A stretch of DNA of 64,000 bases from a bacterium (GCA_965216315.1 CBDCFN010000016.1:320001-384000); one strand, 5' to 3'. Shown: positions 27,020 to 48,208, counted from the first letter of the stretch. A program made the numbers and translations. The notes: generated by a model not told the origin, from the sequence alone.

Positions 27020-27358
27020 TTGCCCAGAGACACGCAGACCCAAGATCAGGCGGCGCCGGAGCCGTTTCGCCCCCGCTATCCGGCTATTGAAAAGTTGGTT
27101 GATTCTGAGGACTTTGATGCCCTCAATCACAATTATGGCCAGGCCTATGACGAATTGGAAAAGCTGGCCAAGCAAAAAGGGGTGGGTGGATCGCGTGATT
27201 CCAAAAAGGCCATGAAGGCCCTCGAACTAGTGATGGATCTGCTGAAGTATCTCCTGAAGCTGAAGTACGAATATTTGGCTTCTATAGAGGGTGGGGATCA
27301 AAGTCCCCAAAAAAATCTTTCTGGAGACACGCAACTCCAGGGAGAGCGGGTGCGATAA
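27020..27358 (+). CDS. Small helical hypothetical protein (possible needle co-chaperone)
   Basis: TTG start after GAGGAGG; lies directly before the needle-like gene. Confidence 0.6.
   Translation: MPRDTQTQDQAAPEPFRPRYPAIEKLVDSEDFDALNHNYGQAYDELEKLAKQKGVGGSRDSKKAMKALELVMDLLKYLLKLKYEYLASIEGGDQSPQKNLSGDTQLQGERVR
27331..27358 (+). promoter_or_regulatory. Putative sigma28-like promoter GCAACT-N16-CGATAA
   Basis: Same motif recurs before five other T3SS-associated genes. Confidence 0.7.
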
Positions 27359-27384
27359 TTTTGGTGAAAGGATAGAAGACCCAG

Positions 27385-27936
27385 ATGACATTAGCCGCAA
27401 TTGAACCCAAAGCCCTTCGCGTTCAGACAGGAGCCCCCTCGACCCCCAAAGGTCCGGGTTTCTCTGAAATCATGTCGGCTTTGGCGCCTGCGGCGGCTGA
27501 AAGCACTGGGCTCGCGACGAATAATGCGAATGCGGCTTCCCTGACGCACGCAGCGCTTACGGGCGCGGCAGTGGCGGCGGGTCCTCAAACGGGGGCCTAC
27601 GGTGGGACTTATGGGATGAGTACGCAGTCTCCTTTCTCTTCCGCCGGATACGGCGTTCCCGACAGCCTCGGGACCGGTTATTCGAGTGGAACTTACGCCG
27701 CGGGTGGCTCCACCGGCGGTTTCGGCGCAGCTATTGGCGGGGGCTCAGGCCTTCCGACCGATCCCTTCATGCAGCAGGATTATCTACTCAATAAAATGCG
27801 TGATACCAACATGCAGATGATCCAGATTCAGGCCTCGATTCAGCACGAAAACCGGCGCTGGACGACCAATTCAAATATCTTAAAGGCAAAACACGATACG
27901 GAAATGGCTCAAGTGCGGAACTTCCGGGTCACCTAA
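27385..27936 (+). CDS. Putative needle/filament subunit (SctF-like C-terminus, Gly/Ser/Ala-rich N-terminal extension)
   Basis: C-terminal QIQASIQHENRRWTTNSNILKAKHDTEMAQVRNFR resembles SctF C-terminal helices; lies upstream of a TPR chaperone and sctJ. Confidence 0.6.
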   Translation: MTLAAIEPKALRVQTGAPSTPKGPGFSEIMSALAPAAAESTGLATNNANAASLTHAALTGAAVAAGPQTGAYGGTYGMSTQSPFSSAGYGVPDSLGTGYSSGTYAAGGSTGGFGAAIGGGSGLPTDPFMQQDYLLNKMRDTNMQMIQIQASIQHENRRWTTNSNILKAKHDTEMAQVRNFRVT

Positions 27937-27939
27937 TTC

Positions 27940-28029
27940 GTGAACCGAAAGCGCAGCTTCCGCTTCACTCTAGTCAAGGGGGCGAAAACTTTCTCCCCCT
28001 TAACAATCCCCCATCGTGGGGTCTCTTAA
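27940..28029 (+). repeat. Hairpin element (same family as the secA insert) forming a 29-codon mini-ORF
   Basis: AAAGCGCAGCTTCCG...GTCAAGGGGGCGAA...TTCTCCCCCTTAACAATCCCCCATCGT matches 15042-15108. Confidence 0.75.
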
Positions 28030-28042
28030 GGAGGAAGCCTGT

Positions 28043-28459
28043 ATGGTCCCGATGGAAAACGACGATCTCATCGTCATGATGGAGGCGGGTTACGTCTACC
28101 TTGGCATGCAGAAGTTCAAGGAGGCCAAGGCCGTCTTTGAAGGGGCCGCCGTGCTCGCGCCGGAAAGCGAGGTTCCACTCGTAGCGCTCGGAAGTGTCTT
28201 CTTTGCCCAGGAGAAATTTGACCAGGCGATCAGCTGGTATAAGAAGGCGCTCAAGAAGAATCCCAATAGTCCCTTCGCCAAGTCCTATTATGGGGAGGCC
28301 CTCATCTTTAAGGGCAAAAAGGACGAGGCCCTCGTTGCCTTGAATGAGGCGATTCAGATGGACCCGAAGGGCCAGTCCGGGATCTTTGCGCAGGCCCTGG
28401 TCGAGGCGGTCAAGGAAGGTTTTGTTCCCCCCAGTCGTGCCGGAGGGGCTGCGCCGTGA
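28043..28459 (+). CDS. TPR protein, probable T3SS chaperone
   Basis: Three TPR repeats; AAGGAGG RBS; position between the needle-like gene and sctJ. Confidence 0.75.
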   Translation: MVPMENDDLIVMMEAGYVYLGMQKFKEAKAVFEGAAVLAPESEVPLVALGSVFFAQEKFDQAISWYKKALKKNPNSPFAKSYYGEALIFKGKKDEALVALNEAIQMDPKGQSGIFAQALVEAVKEGFVPPSRAGGAAP

Positions 28460-29463
28460 CGCGTTTGACTCGGCATGCTGTCGTCTTAGTATTGGCCTTG
28501 AGCCTTTGTGCCTGTGGTGAAGTCGTCTTGCACCAAAATCTCAACCAGATCGACGCGGACAAGATACTCGTTCTGTTGGACAAAAATGGGATTGAGGCCC
28601 ATACCGAAGCCGGGACCGACGGACAGGAGACGACCTGGTCGGTGCTGGTCTCCAAATCGGACGTCTCGATGGCGCGCCGGCTCCTTGTCGAAAACAATTT
28701 GCCCGCCCGCCCCGAATTAGGACTCTCCGGGGTCTATAGTGAAAAAGGACTGATCCCCACGCCAGATGAACAGCGGGCCCGTTTTCTGCTGGCGATGAAG
28801 GGGGAGGTCGTGAACGCGTTGCGCAAGATTCCCGGGGTCCATGAGGTCGGCGTCGTGCTGAATGTCCCGCAAGAATCCGAGTTGGCCTTGGGACAGATCG
28901 ATCAGGTCAAACCGTCGGCATCGGTTGTTCTCCGGGTGGCGGATCCGGCGATGCTCCACCAGGAGTTGACCGAAGAAAAGGTCAAACGCTTCGTCGCGAA
29001 TTCGATCAAGAATCTGGAGCCCAACAACGTCATTGTCATTATTAGTTCCGAGAAGAAAGATACGACGCAGCTCGGTGGGACCGTGTCGGCGCCGGGCGCC
29101 TTGCCGCCGCCCCCGCGTAATCCCCCCCCACCGTCGCCCGAAGGCGGACCGAGTTCGGATCTTGGTTCCGAGTCGGGGACCGCGGGCGGCGAGATCGTGA
29201 CGGTGGCGGGAATCGAGCTGGATGCGGCCTCCGTGGGCAAATTCCGTTTTTATCTGATTATCTTTTTATGCGTCTTGATTCTCCTCTCGGCGGCGTTGCT
29301 GTTGACGCTGTTCCGTTTTAGTCGGATGCGGCGCAAGGCCAAGCCGCGGCGGCTCGAGGCCGTGCCGATTGAGGGGCAACAAGGAGGGCCGGATTTGCTC
29401 CAGAGCGGCCAGGGAGCCATGGGAGTGGGTCCTGGACCCGGTGAAACGGGGACCGGTGCCTAA
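28456..29463 (+). CDS. sctJ: T3SS inner-membrane ring lipoprotein SctJ
   Basis: Lipobox LCAC, LHQNLNQIDAD...LDKNGI, ENNLP, GLIPTPDEQRARF, PSASVV, C-terminal TM; far shorter than FliF. Confidence 0.9.
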   Translation: MTRLTRHAVVLVLALSLCACGEVVLHQNLNQIDADKILVLLDKNGIEAHTEAGTDGQETTWSVLVSKSDVSMARRLLVENNLPARPELGLSGVYSEKGLIPTPDEQRARFLLAMKGEVVNALRKIPGVHEVGVVLNVPQESELALGQIDQVKPSASVVLRVADPAMLHQELTEEKVKRFVANSIKNLEPNNVIVIISSEKKDTTQLGGTVSAPGALPPPPRNPPPPSPEGGPSSDLGSESGTAGGEIVTVAGIELDAASVGKFRFYLIIFLCVLILLSAALLLTLFRFSRMRRKAKPRRLEAVPIEGQQGGPDLLQSGQGAMGVGPGPGETGTGA

Positions 29464-29484: not shown

Positions 29485-29486
29485 AA

Positions 29487-29515
29487 GCAACTGGAACGGT
29501 TTGAAGAGGCGATAA
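29487..29515 (+). promoter_or_regulatory. Putative sigma28-like promoter GCAACT-N17-CGATAA
   Basis: Recurring motif, 25 bp upstream of ATG 29541. Confidence 0.7.
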
Positions 29516-29540: not shown

Positions 29541-29996
29541 ATGACTGCAGGTTTAAATGGCGTCAATCCCAGCATTATGCGGACCGAGGTCCGCTTTGTG
29601 GATCCGACCCGCCCGAAAATAAAGAAGATTGGTGCCGGCGCCAAGTTTGCGAGCGCCTTAGGGAGTTTTTTGGGACCGGTCGCCTCGATTGCCGGTATTT
29701 TCTTTCCACCGGCCTTTGCGATTGGCGCGGCGGCCTACGGAATGAAGGGGCTGGCCCAGCAGTCGATCATGCGGCAACAGGCGGCCAACGCGCAGCAGCA
29801 AGCGTCCTACCAGGCGCAACAGGGGCAGCAAACGATCTCTTTTATGGGCTATGAAGGCGGGCAGGCGCCGATTCGACCCGCGGCGGGCGGGGGACTGATG
29901 GGCCACCGGCCTCCGCAAGCGGATCCGATGATGGATATCCTCTTTATGCGGCAGGAGGCGACGCAACAGATGATTAATACCGATTATAGACGGTAG
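29541..29996 (+). CDS. Putative T3SS substrate with a hydrophobic segment
   Basis: FLGPVASIAGIFFPPAFAIGAAAYG segment, Gln-rich tail; weak similarity to the 27385 protein. Confidence 0.65.
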   Translation: MTAGLNGVNPSIMRTEVRFVDPTRPKIKKIGAGAKFASALGSFLGPVASIAGIFFPPAFAIGAAAYGMKGLAQQSIMRQQAANAQQQASYQAQQGQQTISFMGYEGGQAPIRPAAGGGLMGHRPPQADPMMDILFMRQEATQQMINTDYRR

Positions 29997-30009: not shown

Positions 30010-30369
30010 ATGGGGGTGCATCGACTCGATTCAAATAAAGTTCAACGTTCGCGCGCCGCGGATCCAGCGGCCGATTCCGCGACAAGCGGCGCAGGAACGG
30101 CCAAGGGCCCCGCGGAAGTATTGCCGTTTCCTTTTACGGAGATGCTGACGGTCGCGGGTTTTCGGGTCCCGACCCAATGGCAAGCGCACCCACAATTAGC
30201 GCAACTCCGCCAGAATGCGGAACATACCGCCGGTTTGGACCTTTCCTCGTTTCCACCGGAGATTCAGGAGGATATCCGCACGATGCTCGAATTTGCCGAG
30301 TCCCCGACCTTTAAGCGGCAGATGCAGGCCCTGTTGGATATTGACGTCCCTGACAACGATTCGGCGTAG
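30010..30369 (+). CDS. Hypothetical protein
   Basis: 119 aa, RBS AAGGGA, in operon with 29541. Confidence 0.6.
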   Translation: MGVHRLDSNKVQRSRAADPAADSATSGAGTAKGPAEVLPFPFTEMLTVAGFRVPTQWQAHPQLAQLRQNAEHTAGLDLSSFPPEIQEDIRTMLEFAESPTFKRQMQALLDIDVPDNDSA

Positions 30370-30530: not shown

Positions 30531-30546
30531 TGGCACAAATACTGCA
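30531..30546 (+). promoter_or_regulatory. Sigma54 -24/-12 promoter
   Basis: TGGCACAAATACTGCA (GG-N10-GC). Confidence 0.75.
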
Positions 30547-30582: not shown

Positions 30583-31410
30583 ATGAGTTCAAAAGCTGTG
30601 AAAAAAGTTGCCAAAAAGAAGAGTCCCCCCGCCAAGCAGAAGAAAGACGAGCGCCGTCATTCGGAGACACGGGATCGTCTGATCAAGCAGTATCTTCCCT
30701 ATGCGGCGTCGATCGCGGGACGCGTGATGCAGATGTTATCGTCGGCAGTCGATTACGACGATGTCATGTGTTATGCGCGTTTAGGCCTGCTTGAAGCCGC
30801 CGAACGCTTTGATCCCAGCATGAACGTCGATTTTAAGACCTTTGCGTACTACCGTATCAAGGGCGCGATCTATGACGGGCTCCGCAAGAGCGGTTGGGTC
30901 CCCCGCGCTCTTTACGCCAAGATCAAGTTTGAGCAGGCGTCCAATAATTATCTTGAGTTTGTTTCTTCCAAGCGTTCGCTCGACGGCGATGAAGACCAAA
31001 AGGCCGCCGAGGTCTATGACACAGTTAACTCCCTCGCTTCAATTTACGTGATCTCGATCGATGCCTCGGAAGAGCCGATGGAGATTGAAGATACCAATGC
31101 CAAGAGCTCCGAGCAGCTCGCCCAGTTTCAACAGCTCAAGGGGCACATGAAGGCCTCGATTGAACTCCTCCCGGCCAAGGAACGCAAGCTGATCAAAATG
31201 TATTATTTCCAGAACAAGACCCTCGAAGAGGCGGGAGCTGAATTAGGTCTGTCGAAGAGTTGGACCTCGCGACTCCACGCCCGGGCCCTCGAAATGCTTT
31301 TCAAGAAGGTGAATGCCCGCATTCATCACTCGCACGGGGCGCAAGCGCCTGCGCAGCCGGACGAAGACACCCCTGATCTGCCGCAATTGCAGCAAGGAGG
31401 CACGCGGTGA
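30583..31410 (+). CDS. FliA/WhiG-family (sigma28-like) RNA polymerase sigma factor
   Basis: GLLEAAERFDP...FKTFAYYRIKGAIYDGLR...WVPR; region 4 LEEAGAELGLSKSWTSRLHARAL. Confidence 0.9.
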   Translation: MSSKAVKKVAKKKSPPAKQKKDERRHSETRDRLIKQYLPYAASIAGRVMQMLSSAVDYDDVMCYARLGLLEAAERFDPSMNVDFKTFAYYRIKGAIYDGLRKSGWVPRALYAKIKFEQASNNYLEFVSSKRSLDGDEDQKAAEVYDTVNSLASIYVISIDASEEPMEIEDTNAKSSEQLAQFQQLKGHMKASIELLPAKERKLIKMYYFQNKTLEEAGAELGLSKSWTSRLHARALEMLFKKVNARIHHSHGAQAPAQPDEDTPDLPQLQQGGTR

Positions 31411-31895
31411 GCATCGAAGCGAAAGTCGCTCAAACCGCGACCAAGGTCGCGACCGAAGTTGCCAAGCAAGGGGGCCAAAATCCGCTTCAAACCGGCGAAT
31501 CTCAGTTTATGAACGTGCTGCAGCAGCACGAAATCAAGATGGAAGCGTCCAGCAATGACATTATGTCGATGTTGGGGCAAGATGCCAGCCTCCATCCGGC
31601 CGATAACGCTGTTTCGGCCGATGGCCTCCAAATCCAGATTTCCGACGTCCAAAAGTTGGAATCTGTCGAATCATCCAACAAACTCGGCAATATGTTTGAA
31701 AACCTCAATCGTGATGGGCTCAATATGGAGCGCATTCAGGAGATGGTGATGTCTGGTGAGAAGATGAGTAATCGCGAATTGATGGCAATGCAGGCGATGA
31801 TTCACCAGTCAGCCCTTGAAATCCAGATTGGGGTTCAGGCGATGGACGCCGGGAAGTCCTCGATCCAAACGCTGGTACAAAGGACAACGCAATAG
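31407..31895 (+). CDS. Putative inner-rod (SctI-like) protein
   Basis: C-terminal MSNRELMAMQAMIHQSALEIQIGVQAMDAGKSSIQTLVQ helix pattern; position in the operon. Confidence 0.55.
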   Translation: MSIEAKVAQTATKVATEVAKQGGQNPLQTGESQFMNVLQQHEIKMEASSNDIMSMLGQDASLHPADNAVSADGLQIQISDVQKLESVESSNKLGNMFENLNRDGLNMERIQEMVMSGEKMSNRELMAMQAMIHQSALEIQIGVQAMDAGKSSIQTLVQRTTQ

Positions 31896-31907
31896 TATAA
31901 CTACAAT

Positions 31908-32918
31908 ATGAATGAAGAATTGGCCACCTCAGGCAAGGTCATGGCGGCCTTAGCCATCTTGGAGGGGGAAAGGGATCCGGCGGCACTGTTTCGCTTTGCG
32001 CCGACCGAGCTGGCCGACTCGCTGACCCATTATGCCGGGGTGCTGCGGAGCCGTTTTGCGAGGGGCAAGGCGCAGGAACTGGCAGCGTTGCTCAAGTCGT
32101 GGTCCGAACAATCGCCCGCCTTACCCATCCATGAGATCCATCCGGGCTGGCTCCTTGAAGTCGTCAAAGAAGAGAGTCCGCGCGTCATTGGACTCATCTG
32201 TCGCTACCTTCCCGGTCATCATGTTCGTTTTGTCATCGAGAATCTTCCGCGCGAAATCCGCGACAAACTCCCGACCTTGAATGAAAGTTTCGGTCTCCCG
32301 GTCGAATTGATTAATGAGGTGAAGTCCTTTTTGGGGTCTCGCTTCTTTCAAGGGACGCCGCCCAATGCCGGGGAACGTTTTTCCGTGCGTCATATCCCAT
32401 GGATGAGTGCCCGGGACATTCGTTGCGTGGTGCGGGAGCTGGGCTATAGCGAGTTACGCAAGGCCTTTGTCGGCATGGATGTGCAGGCGATCCAGGCCTT
32501 TCTGACCCGCTTTCCGCTCGAGGAGGCCAAGGAATTGCGGGCCCACATCGAGAAGGGTCCGGCGATTTCTGACGCGGAGCACAAGCGCGCGCAGGCCCAC
32601 ATTGTCGGGATGAATTTAGATGTGAGTTGTGCGGCCGACCTCCCCTATGAAATTGGACTTTCCGCCCTGGCGGAAGCGGTGGCCGCCGATGAGACCGGCT
32701 GGATTGAAGGCGTGGTCGTGCGGCTGGACCCGGCCGAGGGCTACAGCCTCCGTCGTTATGTCAAAGAGGCGCAGGCCAGTGGGCGTTCCGACTCATGCGA
32801 GCGGCGTCAGACGGAATTGTTGGGCTTGATCCGTGAATTGGCCGATAATGGCAAAATTGCCCAGTATTGGGGGAGTCGAGCGGACGACGAAATCACTCAG
32901 AGCGGAAAACCGACTTAA
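31908..32918 (+). CDS. Divergent FliG-like protein in the SctK position
   Basis: EESPRVIGLICRYLP resembles FliG-M EHPQ.IALIL..L; MSARDIRCVVRELGYSELRKAF...GPAISDAEHKRAQAHIV and LLGLIRELADNGKI resemble FliG-C. Confidence 0.65.
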   Translation: MNEELATSGKVMAALAILEGERDPAALFRFAPTELADSLTHYAGVLRSRFARGKAQELAALLKSWSEQSPALPIHEIHPGWLLEVVKEESPRVIGLICRYLPGHHVRFVIENLPREIRDKLPTLNESFGLPVELINEVKSFLGSRFFQGTPPNAGERFSVRHIPWMSARDIRCVVRELGYSELRKAFVGMDVQAIQAFLTRFPLEEAKELRAHIEKGPAISDAEHKRAQAHIVGMNLDVSCAADLPYEIGLSALAEAVAADETGWIEGVVVRLDPAEGYSLRRYVKEAQASGRSDSCERRQTELLGLIRELADNGKIAQYWGSRADDEITQSGKPT

Positions 32919-32941
32919 ATGGTATAATAAGGGCCGAAATT

Positions 32942-33610
32942 ATGACTGAAATCATTAAACGCGATGATCCCGAAGGACAGCTCAAAGTGAAGGAAACGGA
33001 GACGTTCAGTCCGAGCCACTTCGTGCCGTCACGGGGGGTCCTCTCCAAAGACGTCGTCGGGGCCCGAGACGAGGCCGCACGGCTCATTGCCGAGGCGCGC
33101 GTGGAAGGACAACGCGTCATTGAGCAGGCGCGTCAACTCAAAGAGCGCATGACCGCCCAGGTCGAGCAGGAGAGAAAAAAAGGTTACGCCATTGGTCGTG
33201 AAGAGGGCCTGGGCCAGGTGACGGAACTGATGGCCACGGCGACGGCCGAGCGCGAAAAGATGCTCCAGGCGGCCGAACCCGAAGTCGTTCGGATGGTCTT
33301 CCAGATCGTTGAAAAGATACTCGGTGACGCGGTCGACCGCGGGGCCATTGTCGCCGTCGTGCAGCAGGCCCTGACCGAAGCCATCGGCGAACGGATCACG
33401 GTTCGGGTGCATCCCGACGATTTGGACAAAGTCCGCTTGGCCGAGCCCCAGCTCAAAGAGCGGCTCCAAAATATCAAATCTCTGGTCACCGTTGCAGACG
33501 AAGGGATGGAAAAAGGGGGATGCAGCGTGGATACGGAAGTTGGGACAATTGACGCCCAGCTCAGCACGCAGATGGCGGCGATCAAAAAATCCTTAGGATT
33601 GGCGGATTAA
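32942..33610 (+). CDS. sctL: Stator SctL/FliH
   Basis: GYAIGREEG repeat, ITVRVHPDD, GGCSVDTEVGTIDA. Confidence 0.9.
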   Translation: MTEIIKRDDPEGQLKVKETETFSPSHFVPSRGVLSKDVVGARDEAARLIAEARVEGQRVIEQARQLKERMTAQVEQERKKGYAIGREEGLGQVTELMATATAEREKMLQAAEPEVVRMVFQIVEKILGDAVDRGAIVAVVQQALTEAIGERITVRVHPDDLDKVRLAEPQLKERLQNIKSLVTVADEGMEKGGCSVDTEVGTIDAQLSTQMAAIKKSLGLAD

Positions 33611-33613
33611 GCG

Positions 33614-34939
33614 ATGACGATTATTGATCTGAAGAAATTTCAGCGCGACCTCTCTCAAGTGTCGACTTACAAGGTCAAGGGACGGGTGACTGAGCTGATC
33701 GGTTTGGTCGTGCGCGCCGTCGTGCCGAACGTACAGGTCGGCGAGCTCTGTCTGATTGAGCCTCTCAATGAACGGCCCAGTCTGCGGGCGGAGGTCGTTG
33801 GCTTTCAAGAAAATGAGGTCTTACTGATGCCGCTGGGGAATCTCGAAGGGATTGCCCCGGGTTGTAGCGTGATCCCCACCGGCCATGCCATGACGGTTCG
33901 GGTCGGACATGGTTTGTTGGGCCGGGTGCTCAATGGATTGGGGGATCCCCTCGATGAGGAGGAAAAGGGCCCTTTGTCGTGGGACGAAGAGTATCCTGTC
34001 CAAGCGGATCCTCCCCATGCCCTCAAGCGGGAACGCGTGCTGAATACCCTGTCCGTCGGGATCAAGGCGATCGATGCCGTGTGTACGGTCGGTGAGGGCC
34101 AGCGCGTCGGTTTGTTTGCCGGGGCCGGGGTGGGAAAATCGACGCTGATCGGGATGATCGCCCGTAATACGAGTGCCGAAATCAATGTTATTTGTCTGGT
34201 CGGGGAGCGTGGTCGCGAGGTCAGAGATTTCCTGGAACAGGATTTGGGGCCCGAGGGGTTGGCGCGTTCCGTCGTGATCGTGTCGACATCCGATCAACCG
34301 TCGTTGGTGCGTGCCAAGGCCGCCTATGTAGCGACGGCCATTGCCGAGTATTTCCGGGACCAGGGCAAGAGCGTCTTTTTGATGATGGATTCCGTGACGC
34401 GCTTTGCGCGCGCTCTGCGCGAGATTGGTCTGGCCGTCGGGGAGCCGCCGGCGCGTCAAGGCTATACCCCGTCGGTCTTTTCTACTTTGCCCCGTTTGCT
34501 CGAACGCTCCGGTAATTCGGACCGTGGCTCGATCACGGCCTTTTACACGGTGTTGGTGGCCGGGGACGATATGAACGAGCCCGTCGCCGATGAAACGATG
34601 TCGATTCTCGACGGTCATATCGTCTTGTCCCGGGACCTGGCGAATCGCGGTCATTACCCGGCGATCGATGTTTCCAAGTCGGTCAGTCGCGTCATGCTGG
34701 GAGTCGTGAGCCCGGAACACATGAAGGCGGCTCAACAGCTCAAGGAGGTCTTGGCCTCCTATGAAAAGGAGCGGGACCTGATCGTCATCGGGGCCTATGA
34801 GCCGGGGACGGACCCCAAGGTGGATTATGCGATCGATAAGATTGAAGAGGTCGAGACTTTTTTAAAGCAGGATGTCCACGACAAAGTCGGCCTCAACGAA
34901 TCCGTCCAGGAACTCCAGGAGATGTTCGATGATGTTTAA
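33614..34939 (+). CDS. sctN: T3SS ATPase SctN/FliI
   Basis: GAGVGKST, LVGERGREV, MDSVTRFARA, GHYPAIDV. Confidence 0.97.
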   Translation: MTIIDLKKFQRDLSQVSTYKVKGRVTELIGLVVRAVVPNVQVGELCLIEPLNERPSLRAEVVGFQENEVLLMPLGNLEGIAPGCSVIPTGHAMTVRVGHGLLGRVLNGLGDPLDEEEKGPLSWDEEYPVQADPPHALKRERVLNTLSVGIKAIDAVCTVGEGQRVGLFAGAGVGKSTLIGMIARNTSAEINVICLVGERGREVRDFLEQDLGPEGLARSVVIVSTSDQPSLVRAKAAYVATAIAEYFRDQGKSVFLMMDSVTRFARALREIGLAVGEPPARQGYTPSVFSTLPRLLERSGNSDRGSITAFYTVLVAGDDMNEPVADETMSILDGHIVLSRDLANRGHYPAIDVSKSVSRVMLGVVSPEHMKAAQQLKEVLASYEKERDLIVIGAYEPGTDPKVDYAIDKIEEVETFLKQDVHDKVGLNESVQELQEMFDDV

Positions 34940-35039
34940 TAACGATAGCCATTCTAGCGAGCAACGCGAGCGAGAGGGGGAGGCTCCGATGGCTTTGCCA
35001 GTGGAGGGGGCGACGCGAGCCCCTATGAACAATGTCTGA
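34929..35039 (+). repeat. Intergenic hairpin insert forming a 36-codon mini-ORF bridging sctN and sctO
   Basis: AGGAG RBS, ATG 34929, open frame through GC-rich GGGGGAGGCTCC...GGAGGGGGCGACGCGAGCCCCT, TGA just inside the start of sctO. Confidence 0.55.
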
Positions 35040-35535: not shown

Positions 35536-35644
35536 TTAAATGGACGGGTCCTGCCGCCTTCGCAATCCTTTTGCTGCGTCTCAAAACGACGGTCAAAAGG
35601 ATCGCTCGCGTCACCCGTCGCAAGTGAGTATTTGGTAATTTAAT

Positions 35645-36565: not shown

Positions 36566-36603
36566 GAATTTCGCGTAGTTACGTGATTTTTGGGTCAAAT
36601 TCT

Positions 36604-37539: not shown

Positions 37540-37544
37540 ATTTT

Positions 37545-39399: not shown

Positions 39400-39408
39400 G
39401 GAGTTTCG

Positions 39409-39675: not shown

Positions 39676-39689
39676 AGCGGAGGTGATCG

Positions 39690-40552: not shown

Positions 40553-40579
40553 GCAACTTTGGGTCGCTCGAGGCGATAA
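40553..40579 (+). promoter_or_regulatory. Putative sigma28-like promoter GCAACT-N15-CGATAA
   Basis: Recurring motif immediately upstream of ORF 40590. Confidence 0.65.
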
Positions 40580-40589: not shown

Positions 40590-42743
40590 ATGGCTTATTT
40601 TATGGCGGGGGGGATTGCCACGACTCAGCTTGCGTCGGCTGGTGTCCCTGCCCTGAATTCAGGAATTTTATCAGCCCAGTTGCTCAGCCAACCGGCGGTC
40701 TTCGGCGAAATGGCGCCCGGAGCCCCGTTGGCCCTGTCGCTGCAAAGCCCTTATTCCCTGCAACGAACCCAGGCCCGCGAGAATGCCGCGACCGACGCGA
40801 CCTTTCAGGCCGCCGTTCAATTGTTGGACGATATTCAGCGTGGCGTTGATCCCGCGGAGGGAACGGCCGCCGCGTCATTGGATCGCGCTCGTGCGGCGAC
40901 CTTTGTCAGCCGCCTCCAGCGCGAGATCGATCAGGCCTTAGCGCAGACCGCACTCGGTGACCTGGCGGAACCGCTCCGCCAAATAATGACGCAGCATCCG
41001 GAGTTGGCGACTGCCGACCTGGCGACCTGGCGGGAAAATGACTTAGGCCGTAACTTTATCGAGCGCGTCAAAAATCTCTATCGTGAGCAATATTTAGGTT
41101 TTAGCGCCTTTCGTGCAACGACGCAGCTTCCCGGGACGGAGCAGGTTGCCGCCTTGGAAAATGCGGTGCGGGCGATCTATGGCGACGCCGGCCAGGCGCT
41201 GCTCTCCGAGCTGGCGCAAGAAAATCTCAGTGAACTCTTACAACGCGAGAGCTTGGCCGAGCGGGTTTCGCCGGAGGTGTTAGCCAGGCTTTTCCCCGCG
41301 GGACAGCCGCCGTTGACCGAGCGGTACCAAAAAATGGGTCACATGGCCCTGTTTGCGCGCTTTGTCGTGACGCAGCGTCAGTTCATGGAATCCCTCGTCG
41401 GTTCCCCGGAGCGCGTCGAACTCTTTTGGACCTTGCGTGGCTTGGAACTAGAGATGTCGCGACGGGATGATTTCGAGTCGGATGCGTTCAAGACCTTGAT
41501 GCGGCGGGTCCAGATGCCGGACTTAAGCCCCGTTGACCGGAGCCGTTATTTCGCCCTCCAAGAGGCTGTGGCCAAGAGTGGGGCGAATCCGGATCCAGCC
41601 CTCCAGGCGCAAGTCACCGAAGCGCTCCATTATTTTTCTCAGCGGACCGGTGAAACCGATTTAGCAACGGATGCTGGCCAGCATTTTGCCTACCGGGATG
41701 TCGTGCAACAGGTGGCGCTCCTGGCGCTCCGCGTCGGCGTCTCGGCGGAGGACATCAGACGGGAGACCAGCGGACAGGGGACGGCCCCATCGAATGAGCC
41801 GGTGACGCTCCAGCAGATTTATGACGGCACCCAGGTCGTGACCCTTGACGCACTGCCACCGGAAATAAAGGACATCCTTCGCGCCACGGGCCAGTGGGAT
41901 CTCGTCAATCAGGCGACGCGGCGGGTCATCCTCATGCCGGAGATCGCCTCGACGGACTACGTCAAGATGCTGGTCGGCTCGGCACCGAGCGGCCGGGGCT
42001 ATTTTGCCGACGGAACCCTGGTGATCTCGACCGCCCCGGACGGGCTGCGCTCACCGGTCTGGCGCATTGCCGGGTTGATTGCCCATGAAGCGGCGCATCT
42101 GCGCTCTTTGAATGGGATTATGGACAACCCGCAAGAGCTGATGGGAATGACCTCGAATGTACCTCAAGAGCGGGAGGCCTATGCCTGGGAGTCGAAGTTT
42201 TATCGGAGCTTTCTCAGTCGCTTTGGATCCCGCCTCAATGACGCGGATCGCGCCGCCATTGAGCAAACCGTTTTCAATACCGAGTCCATCGTCTATGCGA
42301 CCAATCTGCTCTTGAGCCATTCATTAGAGGACCTGGAGCCGGGGCGTGGGCTGCAGGCCGATCTGGAAATGCGGCGGTATGGCGGGCTGACCGTCGGGCA
42401 GTTGGATATCAATAGTTATCCGGAGCGGTTGCGGGACTTGATCGGGAGGATTGAGTTTAGTGGGGTCGACGGCATCCATCTCAGTAATTTGCGTTCCCGG
42501 CTGCGGCGTCGGATCGAAGATCTCGAACGGGCGCTCCAGGCGTCGCTACGGTTTCAACGCGAAGAGTTGGAGGCGCTGCGTCGGCAGACCGGATCCGACG
42601 CGCTCAGTCCCGAGGCGATTGCCGCCTTTGAGCAGCAGTTGACCGAGATGCCGGACGGGATCCGTCGGAGCCTTGAGGCCTATCGGCGGCAGTTTGGGTT
42701 GTTGGGGCAGGATAACGGGCATGCCGCGGTCAAACTTACCTAA
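40590..42743 (+). CDS. Putative effector with a zincin HExxH motif
   Basis: IAGLIAHEAAH plus downstream EREAY; Ala/Ser/Leu/Pro-rich N-terminus. Confidence 0.65.
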   Translation: MAYFMAGGIATTQLASAGVPALNSGILSAQLLSQPAVFGEMAPGAPLALSLQSPYSLQRTQARENAATDATFQAAVQLLDDIQRGVDPAEGTAAASLDRARAATFVSRLQREIDQALAQTALGDLAEPLRQIMTQHPELATADLATWRENDLGRNFIERVKNLYREQYLGFSAFRATTQLPGTEQVAALENAVRAIYGDAGQALLSELAQENLSELLQRESLAERVSPEVLARLFPAGQPPLTERYQKMGHMALFARFVVTQRQFMESLVGSPERVELFWTLRGLELEMSRRDDFESDAFKTLMRRVQMPDLSPVDRSRYFALQEAVAKSGANPDPALQAQVTEALHYFSQRTGETDLATDAGQHFAYRDVVQQVALLALRVGVSAEDIRRETSGQGTAPSNEPVTLQQIYDGTQVVTLDALPPEIKDILRATGQWDLVNQATRRVILMPEIASTDYVKMLVGSAPSGRGYFADGTLVISTAPDGLRSPVWRIAGLIAHEAAHLRSLNGIMDNPQELMGMTSNVPQEREAYAWESKFYRSFLSRFGSRLNDADRAAIEQTVFNTESIVYATNLLLSHSLEDLEPGRGLQADLEMRRYGGLTVGQLDINSYPERLRDLIGRIEFSGVDGIHLSNLRSRLRRRIEDLERALQASLRFQREELEALRRQTGSDALSPEAIAAFEQQLTEMPDGIRRSLEAYRRQFGLLGQDNGHAAVKLT

Positions 42744-42887: not shown

Positions 42888-42914
42888 GCAACTATTCGTC
42901 GATCGAGCCGATAA
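42888..42914 (+). promoter_or_regulatory. Putative sigma28-like promoter GCAACT-N15-CGATAA (GCCGATAA -10)
   Basis: Canonical sigma28 -10 GCCGATAA; weaker copies at 42761 and ~42856. Confidence 0.75.
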
Positions 42915-42937: not shown

Positions 42938-44413
42938 ATGGGCAGTTATAGCATTTCAATTAGCGGCGCGCATACCCAGACCCTGACCGGGTCGGTGGCC
43001 ATCACGCGGGATGGGAATTTTACCGCGACGGAGCATGGCGCGGCCAAAACCGCCGTCCGTCAGGCCCTCGTTGCGGCAGGCTATTTCGATGGCGGGGGCG
43101 GCCGCTGGTATAAAGATCTTAATGGCGATGGCAATTATACTGCCGATGAGCGCGTCAATATCAGCGTTTCCTTATCCGGCGGCAGCGGTGCGAATTCCAC
43201 CGAGTGGAGCGGCGGGATTGGGACCCTGATGGGGGGAAGTCCTCCGACGGCCATCCCGATGTCCGGGAGTGGCGATACCAACGGCGGCGGTGATACGAAT
43301 GGGACGAACAATGGCACCGGCAATGGCAGTGGCGGTCGGCGTGGGAGCGGAGGACGTACGAGCGGTGGCGGTGGGACGAGTCGCACGACGACTAGTGACC
43401 CCAGCACCTGGACCGGCTATCCGATGCGCATCCGCGTCAAAAAGTCTGATGGGACCTGGGGCGAGTGGCGCACGATCCCTCACGGCCAGGATAACAATTA
43501 TGACGCGAGTGATGCCGAAATCCGCCAGTTGCTCGGGGTTTTGGAAAACGATGATACCGGAGACATGAATGCCCAGGTTCAGGTCGAGTATCAACGCAAT
43601 GGCAGTTGGGGACATGCGGATTCCTTCGATCAATTAGGTCCCCTCTATACCCGGGCCGGGATGGTCCGCCCGGGGGCGACGTCGGGGATGGGCAACGCGA
43701 CGATCAGTTACCGGGATGGCTCGCGGACACGAACGGTGACGGTGCAGTACCGTCTCGATCCCAATTCTGAAGGGGATGTCAGTCACGCCGAGGCGACGCG
43801 CATTCAAGAAATTTTTCGCAACATTCCCGGTTATCAAAGCAGCTGGCGGATCACGCAGGTGCAAGCGGAGGGCAAGACCCTGAATGCCGGTGCTTGGGCG
43901 AGCCGCCTGAGCCCGGATTATCGCTCGCCCAACAGCTCCGGGACTCCCGACGATTTTCTCGATGATTCCTTGAATCGCGGTTTTCTGGCCCGTTTGAGTC
44001 GCAACCGGCAGAGTCGCCGGGCGGAACAGCGGCGTTTGACCGCCATGTTGAATAATCTCCTCAGAGGCGGCCGGCTGAACTGGCGGACCTTCTTAAGCTA
44101 CATCAATCTCAGTGCGATGCGGCGCGAGGCCGTCGTGAACGAGTCCTTGAGCTGGGCGGTGCAGAGCCTGTCCGAAATCGAGGCCCGCCAGGGTGAACTC
44201 AATACCGAATTGCGCGGGCTGAGTTCGTCGGACCGCAACCGCTATACCTCGAGCATGACGCGCATCAACAACGAGCTCAATGAGCTCTCCGGGCAGCGTA
44301 ATTCAATCATGAGCTTTGTCCGCGACTCCAAGTCGGTCTCTGATGAAGGGAAGGAACTCGCGAAGAGTCTCTACGCCGAGCTCCAGCAGGAAGAAATGTT
44401 GATGCGCTTCTAG
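42938..44413 (+). CDS. Putative T3SS substrate, paralogue A (shared C-terminal helical module)
   Basis: Gly/Thr-rich linker, DLNGDG motif; strong similarity to 44685. Confidence 0.75.
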   Translation: MGSYSISISGAHTQTLTGSVAITRDGNFTATEHGAAKTAVRQALVAAGYFDGGGGRWYKDLNGDGNYTADERVNISVSLSGGSGANSTEWSGGIGTLMGGSPPTAIPMSGSGDTNGGGDTNGTNNGTGNGSGGRRGSGGRTSGGGGTSRTTTSDPSTWTGYPMRIRVKKSDGTWGEWRTIPHGQDNNYDASDAEIRQLLGVLENDDTGDMNAQVQVEYQRNGSWGHADSFDQLGPLYTRAGMVRPGATSGMGNATISYRDGSRTRTVTVQYRLDPNSEGDVSHAEATRIQEIFRNIPGYQSSWRITQVQAEGKTLNAGAWASRLSPDYRSPNSSGTPDDFLDDSLNRGFLARLSRNRQSRRAEQRRLTAMLNNLLRGGRLNWRTFLSYINLSAMRREAVVNESLSWAVQSLSEIEARQGELNTELRGLSSSDRNRYTSSMTRINNELNELSGQRNSIMSFVRDSKSVSDEGKELAKSLYAELQQEEMLMRF

Positions 44414-44432: not shown

Positions 44433-44616
44433 GCAACTGGAACTAGAACCCCCACGAAAACACTATGTCGGAGAATTTTAAGCGGACATCTGGGGTCTGT
44501 AGACCTCAAATCCCGGTCCCCTGGACCCGATTTCGTTGATCCCGGGCCGCCGTTTTAATTGTAAGTATTTGAAATTATAAAGGAAATTATTTCCGCCCCT
44601 TGGCATGAAACTTGCT
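44433..44616 (+). promoter_or_regulatory. Composite promoter: sigma28-like (44433-44460), UAS (44491-44508), IHF-like (44562-44574), sigma54 (44601-44616)
   Basis: GCAACT-N16-CGAAAA; TGGGGTCT-GT-AGACCTCA; TTTCAAATACTTA on the minus strand; TGGCATGAAACTTGCT. Confidence 0.75.
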
Positions 44617-44684: not shown

Positions 44685-46067
44685 ATGGCAACGGCATCAT
44701 TTACCATAACCTATACGAAAAACGGCACTCAGCACACGGCCAATATCACCACGGGTGAACTCGATCGCAACGGTGACGGTCAGGTAACGGCTCGTGAAGT
44801 TGATGAGGCAGTCTCTGCGGCGATCCGCGACTACCGGGTTGATGGTAATCGGGTATTTAACTGCGCGGATAGTGCGACGGCGATTACTGGCCGTTCCGGC
44901 GTAACCATTGATAGTCGCAGTGATGTGACGCTTTCCAATTTGACCGGGCATACGAGTTTTACAATGCCGGCGGTGCTCAATCGAAGTTCTTTATCCGCAC
45001 CGGTCCGGACGAGCAACGCGAGCGATCACTCGACCTGGACCGGACGGCCGATGCGCATCCGCGTCAAGAACGCCGATGGTTCCTGGGGACCGTGGCACGA
45101 GATTCCGCACAGCATGGACACTAATTCTGCCGTGAGTAACGAGGAGTTAGCCCGGTTGCTTGGCACACTTCCCTCAAATGAAACCGGTAATATGGGTGCC
45201 GATGTCCAGATTCAGTACCAGAATTCGAGTGGGCAATGGCACCGTTCCAGCGTTCATAATGAGGACTTGGGCAATCTCTATCCCCGCGCCGGCGTGACCC
45301 CGCCGGGAACCGGTGATGGCATGGGCTGGGCGACTATTAAATATCGGGATGGTAATAATACCCGGACGGTTCGTGTCCAGTACCGCTTGGACCCGAATTC
45401 GCCCAACGACGTCAACCACACCGAGGCGACCCGCATTCGAGATGTTTTTCGCAATCTACCCGGTTACCAAAGCTCTTGGCGCATCACCGAGATCCAGGCC
45501 GAAGGCCAGACTTTGGATGCCGGTGGGTTCGCCAGTCGTCTGAGTGATGACTATGTCTCGCCGAATAATCCTAATAATCCGGATAACCCGGATGACCCGA
45601 ACAATCCGGTCAATGGGGCGATTACGCGTAACCTGACCGAGCGCTTGGGCCGGAGTCGTCGCAGCAGTAAGGCGCAGCAGCGGCAGATCACGATGATCCT
45701 GCAGAGTCTGCTTAGAGGCGGTAATCTAAATTGGCGGACCTTTTTGAGCTATATCAATATGAGTACGATGCGGCGTGAGGCCGTGATGAACGAGGCCCTG
45801 ACCTATGCGGTCCAGAGCCTGTCCGGTCTCGAACAGCGCCAGAGTGAGCTGAATACCGAATTGCGTGGCCTGAGCACGAGTGACCGGAACCGCTATACCT
45901 CGAGCATGACCCGCATCAACAACGAACTCAACGAGCTCTCCGGGCAGCGGACGGCGATCATGAACTTTGTCCGTGACTCCAAATCCGTCTCGGATGAGGG
46001 CAAGGAACTCGTCAAGAGCCTGATGGCCGAGCTGCAGCAGGAAGAAGCCCTGATGCGTTTCGCATAA
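44685..46067 (+). CDS. Putative T3SS substrate, paralogue B
   Basis: DRNGDG motif, PNNP/PDNP repeats; central and C-terminal domains closely similar to paralogue A. Confidence 0.75.
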   Translation: MATASFTITYTKNGTQHTANITTGELDRNGDGQVTAREVDEAVSAAIRDYRVDGNRVFNCADSATAITGRSGVTIDSRSDVTLSNLTGHTSFTMPAVLNRSSLSAPVRTSNASDHSTWTGRPMRIRVKNADGSWGPWHEIPHSMDTNSAVSNEELARLLGTLPSNETGNMGADVQIQYQNSSGQWHRSSVHNEDLGNLYPRAGVTPPGTGDGMGWATIKYRDGNNTRTVRVQYRLDPNSPNDVNHTEATRIRDVFRNLPGYQSSWRITEIQAEGQTLDAGGFASRLSDDYVSPNNPNNPDNPDDPNNPVNGAITRNLTERLGRSRRSSKAQQRQITMILQSLLRGGNLNWRTFLSYINMSTMRREAVMNEALTYAVQSLSGLEQRQSELNTELRGLSTSDRNRYTSSMTRINNELNELSGQRTAIMNFVRDSKSVSDEGKELVKSLMAELQQEEALMRFA

Positions 46068-46090: not shown

Positions 46091-46118
46091 AAAGGCGGCC
46101 TTCATGGCCGCCTTTTTT
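46091..46118 (+). terminator. Rho-independent terminator
   Basis: AAAGGCGGCC-TTCAT-GGCCGCCTTTTTT. Confidence 0.85.
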
Positions 46119-46123
46119 ATTGC

Positions 46124-46274
46124 TGGGGCCCTCAGCCCCCATATCCCCGCCTCCAGACCCCAGGGAGTGGGGTATTCAGGGCCTAATTTTTTGGCTTCAA
46201 ATTGTATAATCCCCTGATTTTAGGTATCATTTACTTAGTGCCCCTCTCCGGCGGAGGTTGGCATGGGTCTTGCA
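46124..46274 (+). promoter_or_regulatory. Sigma54 promoter with UAS array and IHF site
   Basis: UAS-like copies at 46124, 46145 and 46168; AATCAGGGGATTA on the minus strand (46207-46219) fits WATCARNNNNTTR; TGGCATGGGTCTTGCA at 46259-46274. Confidence 0.75.
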
Positions 46275-46296
46275 TCTTAAGTCCGCGAGGACCTCT

Positions 46297-48132
46297 ATGG
46301 ATTTATGTTTGTTTGATAACAGCGCGATCGTTCTTGTCGGGAAGCAGGCCGGACTCTTTGACGTGAGTCATCCGGGCAGTGTCGGTGCCCCAAGCGGTCC
46401 GCAGAGTTCAGTTCAGAACCAGAGTACCTCCAGCTCCGGCGAGGCCCCGCAGTACGAAGCCAAGGTCGAAACCCCGACTTTATTGAGTCCGGAAGAAGAA
46501 GCCGCACTGGCCGACCAGAATTTACGCATGAGCAACGCGAATGTTGACCCCAACAAAGCTGCGATCCAGAGCAATCTGCAGGAGAGTAAACTTATTCATA
46601 AAGAGCAGATCACCTGGTTGGAGCACGTCCTGGGTGCGGATGTCGCCAAGGCCCTGCGCAGTGCCAATAAAGATAGTCTTCGCAATATTTCTGATGTCGC
46701 CCGCATTGTTTATGAAGTGACCGGCGGCGATCTCAAGGCCGTTCAAGCCCTGTTGAATAAACTGCACGCGATCAAGTCATCACTGCCCCGCGAAGCCCGC
46801 GCCGATCTCGATGCAATTACGGGCCTCATTGGAGAGATCGAGACCCGAGCCGCAGCGGATGGATTGAAAATCAGCTCTAGTGCTTCCACGCACGATCAGT
46901 ACAAGGCCCGCTCGGCTGAACTGGAGCAGGTGATCACGAAGCTGCAAGACAAGCTGGCCACGCTGCTCCCCAAAGAGCTCGCCGCTCAGTTGAAGAGCCA
47001 AGGATTTTTAGGCGTCGGTGTGGCCAAGAAGGTCAGCGACGCGATTACCAAGAAATTTGATGCCCAGCTCAAGGAGCTGCGTGCCGAACTCAAGGCGGCC
47101 AAGGACGCCGGCAACAAAGAGCGGGTCCAGTTAATCAAGTCGAAAATCAGCGATGTCCAGGCCAACCAAAAGCAGGCCCTGCAGCAGGCCCGCATTCTCG
47201 GCAAGGTCCTGCAGGCCGGTGACCGGGCGCTTAGCTCCGAGAATCTCGAGCAGATCAATCAATTTTTTAATCTTATTGATGCCCCGCGCGGTGGTGCGCA
47301 GGAAGGTATCCAGGCAGCGGTTCTCAATCTTGATGAGGTCCGTGACCTCGATCAACTCGAAGGCATTGTCAATGTCGTGTTGAACGCCGAAGAGACCGCC
47401 CAGGCCGGGACGCAGTCGACCGCGCATTCCGGTGACGCCGGAGCGCCGCAAGAGTCGTCTTCGGGCGCCGGCATTCAGTCTGCAGGCGGTACCGGTAACG
47501 ATGAGCCGGTCGACGAAGCCGAGATGGCCAAAAAAGTTTTAATGGAAGAAGGCCAGGACATCGAAGGCCAGGGCAGCGGTGCCGGGATTCAATCCGAAGG
47601 CGCGACTGCCGAAGAGCATGCCGAGATCCAGGGTGACTGGATGGGCCTGACGCAGGCCGAGATGGGCATGAAGATCGCCAGTTCGAGCGTCGTGATGGGG
47701 ATTACCTCGTCGTATTACCGCGGCCGCTCGGACGAGCGCAAACTCAAGGGCATGATCGACAAGTTGATCGCCGCGATTTCACGCGGTGATCTCGATGCGA
47801 TCAGTACCGCTCTGATCCTGATCGGACGCCGCTCGCAGGAGAGCCTACGCAAGGTCTCCCTGACGATGATCAAGGCGATGAAATATTATGAAGAACAGCA
47901 GTCGGGCCTCAATGATGAGCTGGAATCCTTGACCCGTGATATGGGTCCGACCTTTGGTGCGGATATGCAGGCGATTAACAACAAGATGAATATGTACTCG
48001 AGTAATCGCCAGGCCCTGATGTCGATGTTCCGTGATACCAAGGCGCAGGTCGATACGATTGAGAATTTAACCAAGTCGATACTGGATATCGAAGGCCGGC
48101 AGAAACGCCAGCTGGCGCAATTCCAGGCCTAA
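46297..48132 (+). CDS. Putative T3SS substrate, paralogue C (coiled coil plus shared C-terminal module)
   Basis: ATG 46297 after GAGG (the TTG at 46258 overlaps the sigma54 promoter); YSSNRQA...RD.K C-terminal motif. Confidence 0.75.
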   Translation: MDLCLFDNSAIVLVGKQAGLFDVSHPGSVGAPSGPQSSVQNQSTSSSGEAPQYEAKVETPTLLSPEEEAALADQNLRMSNANVDPNKAAIQSNLQESKLIHKEQITWLEHVLGADVAKALRSANKDSLRNISDVARIVYEVTGGDLKAVQALLNKLHAIKSSLPREARADLDAITGLIGEIETRAAADGLKISSSASTHDQYKARSAELEQVITKLQDKLATLLPKELAAQLKSQGFLGVGVAKKVSDAITKKFDAQLKELRAELKAAKDAGNKERVQLIKSKISDVQANQKQALQQARILGKVLQAGDRALSSENLEQINQFFNLIDAPRGGAQEGIQAAVLNLDEVRDLDQLEGIVNVVLNAEETAQAGTQSTAHSGDAGAPQESSSGAGIQSAGGTGNDEPVDEAEMAKKVLMEEGQDIEGQGSGAGIQSEGATAEEHAEIQGDWMGLTQAEMGMKIASSSVVMGITSSYYRGRSDERKLKGMIDKLIAAISRGDLDAISTALILIGRRSQESLRKVSLTMIKAMKYYEEQQSGLNDELESLTRDMGPTFGADMQAINNKMNMYSSNRQALMSMFRDTKAQVDTIENLTKSILDIEGRQKRQLAQFQA

Positions 48133-48179
48133 ACGGCCGGAATCTGAATGTAGGGGCGCTGCTCGCCGCGCCCGGAAAG

Positions 48180-48208
48180 GCAACTGGAAGAGGCTTTTGA
48201 GCCGATAA
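48180..48208 (+). promoter_or_regulatory. Putative sigma28-like promoter GCAACT-N17-CGATAA (GCCGATAA -10)
   Basis: Recurring motif. Confidence 0.75.

Follow-up and report, generated by a model that had tools for sequence, protein, structure and literature searches.

The stretch of DNA considered here, GCA_965216315.1 CBDCFN010000016.1:320001-384000 (the window, that is, the whole 64,000 nucleotides (nt) analysed, with positions counted from the first one), comes from a bacterium of the uncultured phylum UBA10199. It carries a locus for a secretion system of type III (T3SS) which encodes a sigma factor of the sigma-28 family and in which the motif GCAACT-N15-17-CGATAA recurs ahead of several genes. 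The genome measures 2.96 Mb and is 98% complete; 41 genomes of the class and 93 genomes of the phylum were examined with it. The phylum itself appears in taxon lists only in the parts of the literature that were available.

The gene sctV (19083..21218, + strand) is the only FHIPEP gene of the genome, and its product scores above the cutoff of SctV (806 bits) and below that of FlhA (698 bits). A family match points to an FHA/YscD-like protein with PEGA and TPR domains at 24707. From 27005 onwards the + strand encodes, in this order, unk117 (27005..27358), a conserved helical protein with 26 orthologs in 45 loci; unk183 (27385..27936), a needle-like (SctF-like) protein with an extended Gly-rich N-terminal part, according to a comparison of its profile with PDB; a T3SS chaperone-like TPR protein (28016..28459; LcrH_SycD 40.9, SctY 33.3 and CdsG 32.5 bits, all under the cutoffs); a SctJ-like inner-membrane ring protein (28456..29463; PF01514; SctJ 115 vs FliF 38 bits); unk151 (29541..29996), a conserved small protein with one hydrophobic segment; unk119 (30010..30369), a fast-evolving small protein with positional orthologs of 105-125 amino acids (aa) between unk151 and the sigma gene; and the sigma-28-family paralog itself (30583..31410, 275 aa from the ATG at 30583). 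We take the place of unk117 ahead of the needle-like gene to resemble that of a needle co-chaperone. Behind the sigma gene, Pfam and subfamily profile matches identify the core apparatus genes (31407..40514, + strand) in the order unk162, FliG-like, SctL/FliH, ATPase, FliJ/SctO, FliK/SctP-like (HpaP-like), FliM-like, FliN/SctQ-C, FliO, SctR, SctS and SctT.

After SctT come five orphan genes for proteins of 460-717 aa, all on the + strand. The first (717 aa, 40590..42743) contains no cysteine and belongs to no Pfam family. The other four are paralogs with a common C-terminal domain of about 140 aa: a 491-aa protein (42938..44413), a 460-aa protein 61% identical to it (44685..46067), a 611-aa protein (46297..48132) whose start is probably the ATG at 46297, downstream of a sigma-54 site, and a 601-aa protein (48233..50038). 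They are followed on the same strand by two genes for LcrH/SycD-like TPR chaperones (50124-50810 and 51762-52364; 75.6 and 69.3 bits, below the cutoff of 104.8) around a 298-aa orphan with a filament-like C-terminus (50814-51710). The orphans of the locus have 0-1 cysteine, no transmembrane segments and helical C-termini.

Every component of the core Sct-type export apparatus (SctV, N, R, S, T, U, J, L and Q) was found, SctU being encoded elsewhere in the genome (377 bits). SctN (620 bits) and the SctR subfamily exceed their cutoffs, SctJ and SctL are best matches below theirs, and for SctJ, SctL and SctR the Sct model outscores the flagellar one. Matches of the flagellar type also occur in the locus, namely FliG_C (E 1e-6), FliM, FliO and FliJ, while no flagellin, rod or hook gene was found in the genome. 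The locus holds no secretin domain, and the only ones in the genome are at C16:974670 (in a 989-aa frame) and, weakly, at C16:16707. The locus is a secretin-less T3SS, probably derived from the flagellum, and a mosaic of Sct and flagellar parts.

Exact copies of GCAACT-N15-17-CGATAA occur five times in the window, against 0.03 expected, and none of 100 shuffled sequences reached five. They are all on the + strand: at 27331..27358 (N16), inside the 3' end of unk117 and 26 nt before the ATG of unk183; at 29487..29515 (N17), preceding unk151 and unk119; at 40553..40579 (N15), between sctT/fliR and the 717-aa orphan; at 42888..42914 (N15), preceding the 491-aa orphan; and at 48180..48208 (N17), preceding the 601-aa orphan and the LcrH-like chaperone genes. 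In the five cases, 10-26 nt separate the end of the -10 hexamer from the ATG of the open reading frame (ORF). This agrees entirely with the initial annotation of the window, which had placed the five copies ahead of the same ORFs. The two variants that it had added are also present, one with one mismatch (GCAACT-N16-CGAAAA, 44433..44460, + strand, 250 nt before 44685 and of uncertain significance) and one with two (CGAAGA, at 42761), but neither can be distinguished from chance on its own. The CGAAAA variant occurs 7 times in the genome vs 2 in the control, and the ORF at 44685 has an exact sigma-54-type site (44601) closer to its start. Degenerate sites also stand ahead of sctV and sctU, the former (GCAACT-N17-CGATAT, 18834..18862, + strand) within the 3' end of argJ and 220 nt before sctV. 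Another site with one mismatch, GAAACT-N15-CGATAA (13889..13915, + strand), precedes an M23 peptidase gene; this variant has 9 occurrences in the genome vs 0 in the control.

With the reversed pattern as the control for chance, the exact motif was found 56 times in the genome and its control never. The initial annotation had seen in the motif a regulon of this locus, a view that the genome-wide scan contradicts: only 5 of the 56 exact sites are in the locus, 51 are outside it, and the motif is abundant in every relative. The spacers N15, N16 and N17 account for 30, 7 and 19 sites respectively, and each other spacing from 8 to 25 gives 0-2. In an unbiased test anchored on CGATAA, GCAACT was the top upstream hexamer (30 vs 0.61 expected at N15, and 19 at N17), the next-ranked words being ACAAC and GCAACA variants. 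When one mismatch was allowed, 138 sites were found vs 34 in the control, about 100 above it. The exact sites have the context of promoters: 44 of the 56 are intergenic (195 of 3000 random positions) and 48 have a co-oriented gene start within 200 nt (261 of 3000), the respective figures for the one-mismatch sites being 71 and 69 of 138. We can confirm that GCAACT-N15-17-CGATAA is a real recurring promoter class, genome-wide rather than locus-specific, which would comprise roughly 100-150 further promoters across the genome. CACAAC...CGATAA was also considered as a repeat family and discarded as such, its 19 sites being independent promoters whose -35 element is an ACAAC variant.

The -10 element of the motif reads nCCGATAA, with C at -1 in 33 and G at -2 in 26 of the 56 sites. 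Sites with N15 have the form GCAACTTT, those with N17 the form GCAACTC(G/A)A. The canonical FliA consensus is TAAAGTTT-N11-GCCGATAA, and the N15 class, written GCAACTTT-N11-nCCGATAA, has the same geometry; the genome contains a single copy of the canonical TAAA-N15-GCCGATAA. The sites of T3SS loci (29487, 48180, 44433 and 42761 in the window, and those in the relatives' loci L055, L057, L058, L066, L068, L069 and L080) often extend to GCAACTGGA(A/G), mostly with N17, unlike the genome-wide majority, which is GCAACTTT with N15. The two classes of sites may differ in strength, timing or need for a co-factor.

The promoters of the locus were followed in the loci of 45 relatives, a sigma-28-type site being counted when it lay within 300 nt upstream of a gene with at most one mismatch. 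Such a site precedes all 13 detectable unk183 orthologs with upstream sequence (a sigma-54-type site, 1/13) and all 11 unk151 orthologs (sigma-54-type, 0/11). The orthologs of the sigma gene show the reverse, with no sigma-28-type site in 40 loci and a sigma-54-type site in 38 of them. Neither type was found ahead of SctJ (0/32 for both) or TPR147 (0/30 for both). Ten core genes from FliG-like to SctT, the ATPase excepted, have no sigma-28-type site, and sigma-54-type sites in 0 to 4 of 26-41 orthologs. For the ATPase, a sigma-28-type site occurs in 7 of 37 orthologs and a sigma-54-type site in another 7 of the 37. In the relatives' loci L066, L068, L069, L070 and L077, ACAACT-N17-CGATAA stands just ahead of the ATPase gene, at a distance of some 3.0 to 3.3 kb from the sigma gene; both the sigma-28-type and the sigma-54-type sites that precede the ATPase in relatives are absent in the window. 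In many relatives a further site follows sctT, about 9.6-10.2 kb downstream from the sigma gene, and the gene behind it is barely conserved.

The sigma-54-type -24/-12 promoter ahead of the sigma gene in the window, TGGCACAAATACTGCA, lies at 30531..30546 (+ strand); the pattern TGGCA[CT]-N6-TGCA, found at this place in the 38 loci just mentioned, is present in 5% of random windows. Exact sites of the same type precede the 460-aa paralog (44601..44616, + strand) and the 611-aa paralog (46259..46274, + strand). RpoN is present in the genome, and the locus is flanked by a PEGA Ser/Thr kinase and by an FHA-domain sigma-54 activator (52422..53819, - strand), a candidate activator of these promoters. 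Judging from this arrangement, sigma-54 would act above the sigma-28 paralog in a cascade.

The window sigma is the only FliA-like sigma of the genome, where the other members of the sigma-70 family are one RpoD-like protein, RpoH, two genes of the size of extracytoplasmic function (ECF) sigmas and two partial matches. Its top four NCBIfam matches are all FliA or WhiG models, and its top sequence matches in PDB are WhiG (6pfj, 6pfv) and FliA (9wsf, 6pmi, 1rp3). The region that reads the -10 element is conserved, as its segment FKTFAYYRIKGAIYDGLRKxGWxPR aligns with FETYA..RIRGAM.DE.R..DW.PRS of WhiG/FliA chains. The region 4.2 helix that reads the -35 element differs at four positions (SKSW(T/V)SRLH vs SESRVSQ(L/I)H in WhiG/FliA), and SKSW-x-SRLH is invariant in the 41 orthologs that yielded sequence. 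A kept -10-reading segment and a changed -35-reading helix match the kept -10 and changed -35 of the motif. Since it is also the only FliA-like sigma in the genome and is accompanied by the motif in all 41 class genomes, the locus-encoded sigma is most likely, by analogy with known family members, the reader of the motif. The corresponding proposal of the initial annotation, a sigma-28-type promoter with a conserved -10 (nCCGATAA) and an altered -35 (GCAACT), and the locus sigma as the best candidate to recognise it, is borne out. As for a partner of this sigma, no protein of the window matched the FlgM family in Pfam scans, a genome-wide FlgM search not having been made. From its place, unk119 could speculatively be proposed as an anti-sigma factor; predictions of its complex with the sigma gave run scores of 0.73, 0.21 and 0.02 vs a mark of 0.32, and speak neither for nor against binding.

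Some members of the phylum are flagellated and allow the two kinds of sigma-28 to be compared. Flagellin was found in 12 of the 93 phylum genomes, above the family cutoff in 11, and these 11 are also the genomes with a second, higher-scoring FHIPEP gene. In the five flagellated genomes examined, an orthodox FliA (209-231 bits) near the flagellar flhA coexists with the T3SS-linked paralog (130-147 bits). Contrary to expectation, the motif, whether exact or with one mismatch, is absent from all 13 flagellin upstream regions of these relatives, as is CCGATAW. Eight of the 13 carry [TC][TCA]AAG[TGC]T[TCA]-N10-13-[TC]CCGT at -94 to -126 from the gene, against 0.03-0.04 expected. This TAAAGTTT-like-N10-13-TCCGT pattern is unlike the GCAACT motif. 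The two proteins differ in a corresponding manner: in the flagellar FliA the helix, (T/S)ESR(V/I)SQ, is of the canonical type and no W precedes PRS, and the T3SS paralog is the reverse. The idea that the motif is simply the flagellar FliA promoter of the lineage was rejected on these grounds, the flagellin regions being devoid of it and a separate orthodox FliA being present. The window encodes a sigma-28 (FliA/WhiG) paralog that is separate from the flagellar FliA. In each of the two, one half of the promoter and one segment of the protein have remained canonical, which fits an insulation of the two regulons. The analogy with class 3 flagellar transcription that had been drawn in the initial annotation is strengthened by the conserved sigma-54 promoter of the sigma gene, but the paralog is not the flagellar FliA and the flagellin genes are without the motif.

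The window-type sigma is present in all 41 class genomes, in 91 of the 93 phylum genomes and in all 63 phylum genomes of high quality. The motif has the same distribution in the class, with 10-99 sites in each of the 41 genomes vs 0-2 in the controls. Among the best 150 cluster representatives of the sigma, down to 32% identity, the W of the helix is found in 139 and the R in 143, and 112 match S[KR]SW. A metagenome scan with distant members of the sigma returned at least 590 confirmed stretches. Among the matches listed, 30 are long loci (G+C content 47%-71%); in 22 of these a SctJ-like gene lies no further than about 2.3 kb from the sigma, and in 23 there is some T3SS match. The strict motif was found only in the four with a synteny like that of the window (5 sites vs 0 in the control); in the other 26, the relaxed form [GA]CAAC-N16-18-CGATA[AT] gives 5 sites vs 1, some of them ahead of needle-like genes. 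The extension of the linkage between motif and T3SS beyond the phylum is tentative. Three phylum genomes of family f15 (G018, G039 and G088) match FHIPEP 2-3 times, have no flagellin match and encode, as a second sigma paralog, a distant one (31-41% identity); they may hold a further T3SS-type system.

The genes behind the motif encode for the most part proteins that belong to no Pfam family. This is the case for 44 of the 56 first genes (39 of 51 outside the window and all five inside it), vs 10 of 48 ORFs from four arbitrary regions (p = 4e-9), a control that left out one 5,725-aa ORF, too long for the Pfam scan. The latter is a single open frame, found at G000:C16:1500565-1517742 (L097-L100). 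In the locus, the best PDB match to the profile of unk183 is a chain of 43 residues from a needle/co-chaperone entry (E 0.0037), and seven further matches, with E-values of 0.38-1.6, are PrgI or MxiH needle subunits, aligned end-to-end at the extreme C-terminus, so that 8 of the 12 matches listed are of the needle type. The Pfam needle family does not match unk183. Its AlphaFold model has a mean predicted local distance difference test score (pLDDT) of 57.9 and consists mostly of one long helix, with a confident C-terminal helix at 127-182. A plain sequence search against PDB gave nothing relevant for unk183, unk162, the 298-aa orphan or the shared C-terminal domain of the four paralogs, and the protein atlas no usable match for the 491-aa orphan or a member of a second cluster. 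Some targets elsewhere in the genome do belong to a family: a DEAD-box helicase, a tRNA methyltransferase, a BFD-like ferredoxin and DUF4423 regulator-like proteins. A crude hydropathy rule assigns Sec or lipoprotein-like N-termini to the products of about 16 of the 56 first genes. For the targets in the locus, the neighbouring chaperone-like genes suggest that the products may be exported.

Several groups of targets deserve a description of their own. A second dense island, G000:C16:2163562-2208403, contains 13 exact N15 sites, many of which read GCAACTTTCGCAA...CCGATAA, and each of its promoters heads an orphan gene. Two paralog families are found there, one of four proteins with a common N-terminal domain of about 210 aa and one of three proteins that are 608-901 aa long, all without signal peptides, and the region may be an effector-like island. 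At G000:C16:2034457 and 2035748, two lipoprotein-like genes in tandem, paralogs of 374 and 407 aa with 43% identity, have identical N17 copies of the promoter, which suggests a recent tandem duplication that included the promoter. DUF4423 is represented by at least three paralogs, each about 282 aa long (C16:105078, C16:2280780 and C15:109074-109928), two of them directly behind exact sites. An 860-aa protein with RTX calcium-binding repeats (G000:C16:825991-828573) has an exact site 249 nt upstream, and its first residues seem to us to resemble the N-terminus of flagellin.

Taken together, the above results are well explained if GCAACT-N15-17-CGATAA is the promoter class of the sigma-28 paralog encoded in the flagellum-derived, secretin-less T3SS locus, with a genome-wide regulon and sigma-54 at the top, a reading that we regard as probable. 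In that case, the sigma-54 promoter would drive the sigma gene, and probably also the core apparatus genes behind it. The paralog would then read a FliA-type -10 (nCCGATAA) together with a new -35 (GCAACT, with CAAC as its core) through its changed region 4.2 helix. It would switch on the operon of the needle-like subunit and the cysteine-poor orphans with their LcrH/SycD-like chaperones, as well as some 100-150 promoters elsewhere, most of which would head genes of unknown-family proteins.

A number of observations weigh against this reading. The best family of the window sigma is FliA/WhiG (TIGR02479), but its 133 bits fall short of the curated cutoff of 189.6, and its assignment to the motif relies on co-occurrence and analogy. 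The relatives are kin and not independent, so the counts across them overstate the support. The two modes of the spacer, N15 and N17, are odd for sigma-28 promoters. In the flagellated relatives, the shorter flagellar-type pattern shows no genome-wide enrichment over its reversed control, and the evidence for it is positional only. The needle assignment of unk183 is marginal, with E-values from 0.0037 to 1.6. Given the Sec or lipoprotein-like products, the regulon is not purely made up of T3SS substrates. Finally, sctJ, a ring component, lies behind the 'late' promoter at 27331 and has no promoter of its own, and there is thus no clean split between early and late genes. The latter point also qualifies the initial description of the targets as secreted proteins rather than basal-body parts: it suits the genes that come first after the sites, which encode a needle-like subunit and orphans, but not sctJ or the degenerate sites at sctV and sctU.

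The alternative closest to the initial annotation is a locus-centred class 3 regulon of secreted T3SS effectors, comparable to late flagellar genes. The five sites of the window are indeed all ahead of non-core genes, the orthologs of 10 of the 11 core genes are without a site (the ATPase, at 7 of 37, being the exception), and the targets in the locus resemble exported parts with chaperones, the genome-wide ones being mostly orphans. Yet the 51 exact sites outside the locus are difficult to accommodate in such a regulon, as are the helicase, the tRNA methyltransferase, the ferredoxin, the DUF4423 proteins, the Sec or lipoprotein-like targets and the position of sctJ behind one of the sites. 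We consider this alternative unlikely. Another option is that the motif is read by a different sigma, for instance by either ECF sigma. Promoters of the ECF type usually contain AAC in their -35 and CG in their -10 element, half-sites that the GCAAC and CGA words of the motif resemble, and two sigmas of the ECF size do exist in the genome. Nevertheless, their orthologs occur in 10 and 15 of the 41 class genomes, vs a motif dense in all 41, and neither was found at E<=1e-15 in G040, G037 and G004, three genomes rich in the motif. The extended -10 nCCGATAA fits sigma-28 and not ECF, and the N15 geometry is that of a FliA promoter. The ECF reading was rejected on its distribution and appears very improbable. 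The least credible option, with hardly any probability left to it, is a transcription-factor binding site or another conserved non-promoter element, for which the N15/N17 bimodality, odd for one sigma, could be invoked, but the sites are oriented strictly as the next gene is, mostly lie 5-150 nt from it, lack dyad symmetry, have a -10 half equal to that of sigma-28, and pair a changed -35 half with the changed -35-reading helix of the only FliA-like sigma.

The promoter class of a T3SS-encoded sigma-28 paralog could also be part of a broader scheme, in which the full flagellar logic was kept: an early operon under sigma-54, the paralog held by a small exported inhibitor (unk119 or another protein), and the release of an 'attack' programme of more than 100 orphans when the machine is completed or a target cell is contacted. 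The change in the -35 element would then serve as an insulation from the true flagellar FliA, still present in some members, and the CAAC/CGATAA pairing with its link to a T3SS would exist in many other environmental lineages. This scheme as a whole is a conjecture that we consider rather unlikely.

The preferred reading, a genome-wide promoter class of the sigma-28 paralog, can be compared to known systems. The enteric FliA and its class 3 genes share with it the sigma family by best match, the -10 element and the N15 spacing of the promoter that it would read, a sigma gene beside type III export genes and the control of exported axial-type parts, predicted ones in the present case. The differences are a score below the family cutoff, GCAACT instead of TAAA(GTTT) as -35, the helix modified at its four positions, a genome without flagellum, and relatives whose orthodox FliA coexists with the paralog and whose flagellin promoters lack the motif. 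Flagellar hierarchies from sigma-54 to sigma-28 exist in Vibrio, Pseudomonas and Campylobacter. As in them, a sigma-28-type gene stands under a sigma-54 promoter (here in 38 of 40 relatives) and an enhancer-binding protein gene flanks the locus, but the machine here is not a flagellum. Bordetella BtrS is a sigma of the ECF type. Together with BtrA, an anti-sigma secreted by the T3SS, it forms a system presented as proven in the available part of its description (PMC10732220). As far as that part goes, it resembles our case in that an alternative sigma encoded with a non-flagellar T3SS controls substrates, and differs in the kind of sigma and in its secreted anti-sigma, which is only hypothesised here (PMC10732220).

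The FliA of Bdellovibrio bacteriovorus is described, in the accessible part of the report, as regulating the attack phase globally, TTAAG-N16-CCGATA being present in 92 of the 140 attack-phase promoters that were mapped (PMC3627812). From the same part of that report, both systems have a sigma-28-type regulon that extends far beyond the flagellum and includes many uncharacterised targets, but the Bdellovibrio protein is the flagellar FliA of a flagellated cell and has a canonical-type -35, whereas a separate T3SS paralog with a new -35 is found here (PMC3627812). The T3SS* of Myxococcus xanthus is presented, in what was available of the publication, as a secretin-less and 'needle-less' T3SS used in predation (PMC10849154), and a partly available source reports FliO in T3SS of Myxococcota (PMC12403147). 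Compared with these partial descriptions, our locus is alike in its lack of a secretin, its FliO and the FHA, PEGA-kinase and sigma-54 regulators of Myxococcota style around it; it is set apart by the needle-like candidate unk183, which makes a needle-less status doubtful, the LcrH/SycD-like chaperones and the sigma-28 paralog. A literature search returned no paper linking a sigma-28-type paralog to T3SS*, nor any description of a sigma-28 paralog in a non-flagellar T3SS locus or of a GCAACT-type -35 element.

If the preferred reading is correct, a non-flagellar T3SS would have inherited from the flagellum not the export core alone but also a regulatory hierarchy, sigma-54 followed by a sigma-28-type factor, which would add a regulatory line of evidence to the derivation of injectisomes from flagella. 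The lineage would also show how two sigma-28 paralogs became orthogonal in nature through a split of the canonical promoter, the flagellar one keeping the -35 and altering the -10 and the T3SS one keeping the -10 and altering the -35, with changes visible in both proteins. In practice, the motif is a predictor of about 100-150 co-regulated genes per genome in an uncultured phylum, most of them of unknown function and including candidate T3SS substrates.

Two regions of the window lie apart from the T3SS genes. Positions 1-5000 form a stretch of low G+C content (38-40% vs about 55% elsewhere) with two orphan genes and a 696-aa protein with DUF4365 and TPR, which may be a foreign or defence-type island. 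Downstream of the locus, a PrkA, DUF444 and SpoVR triad occupies 59122-63723, where the G+C content falls to 45-49%.

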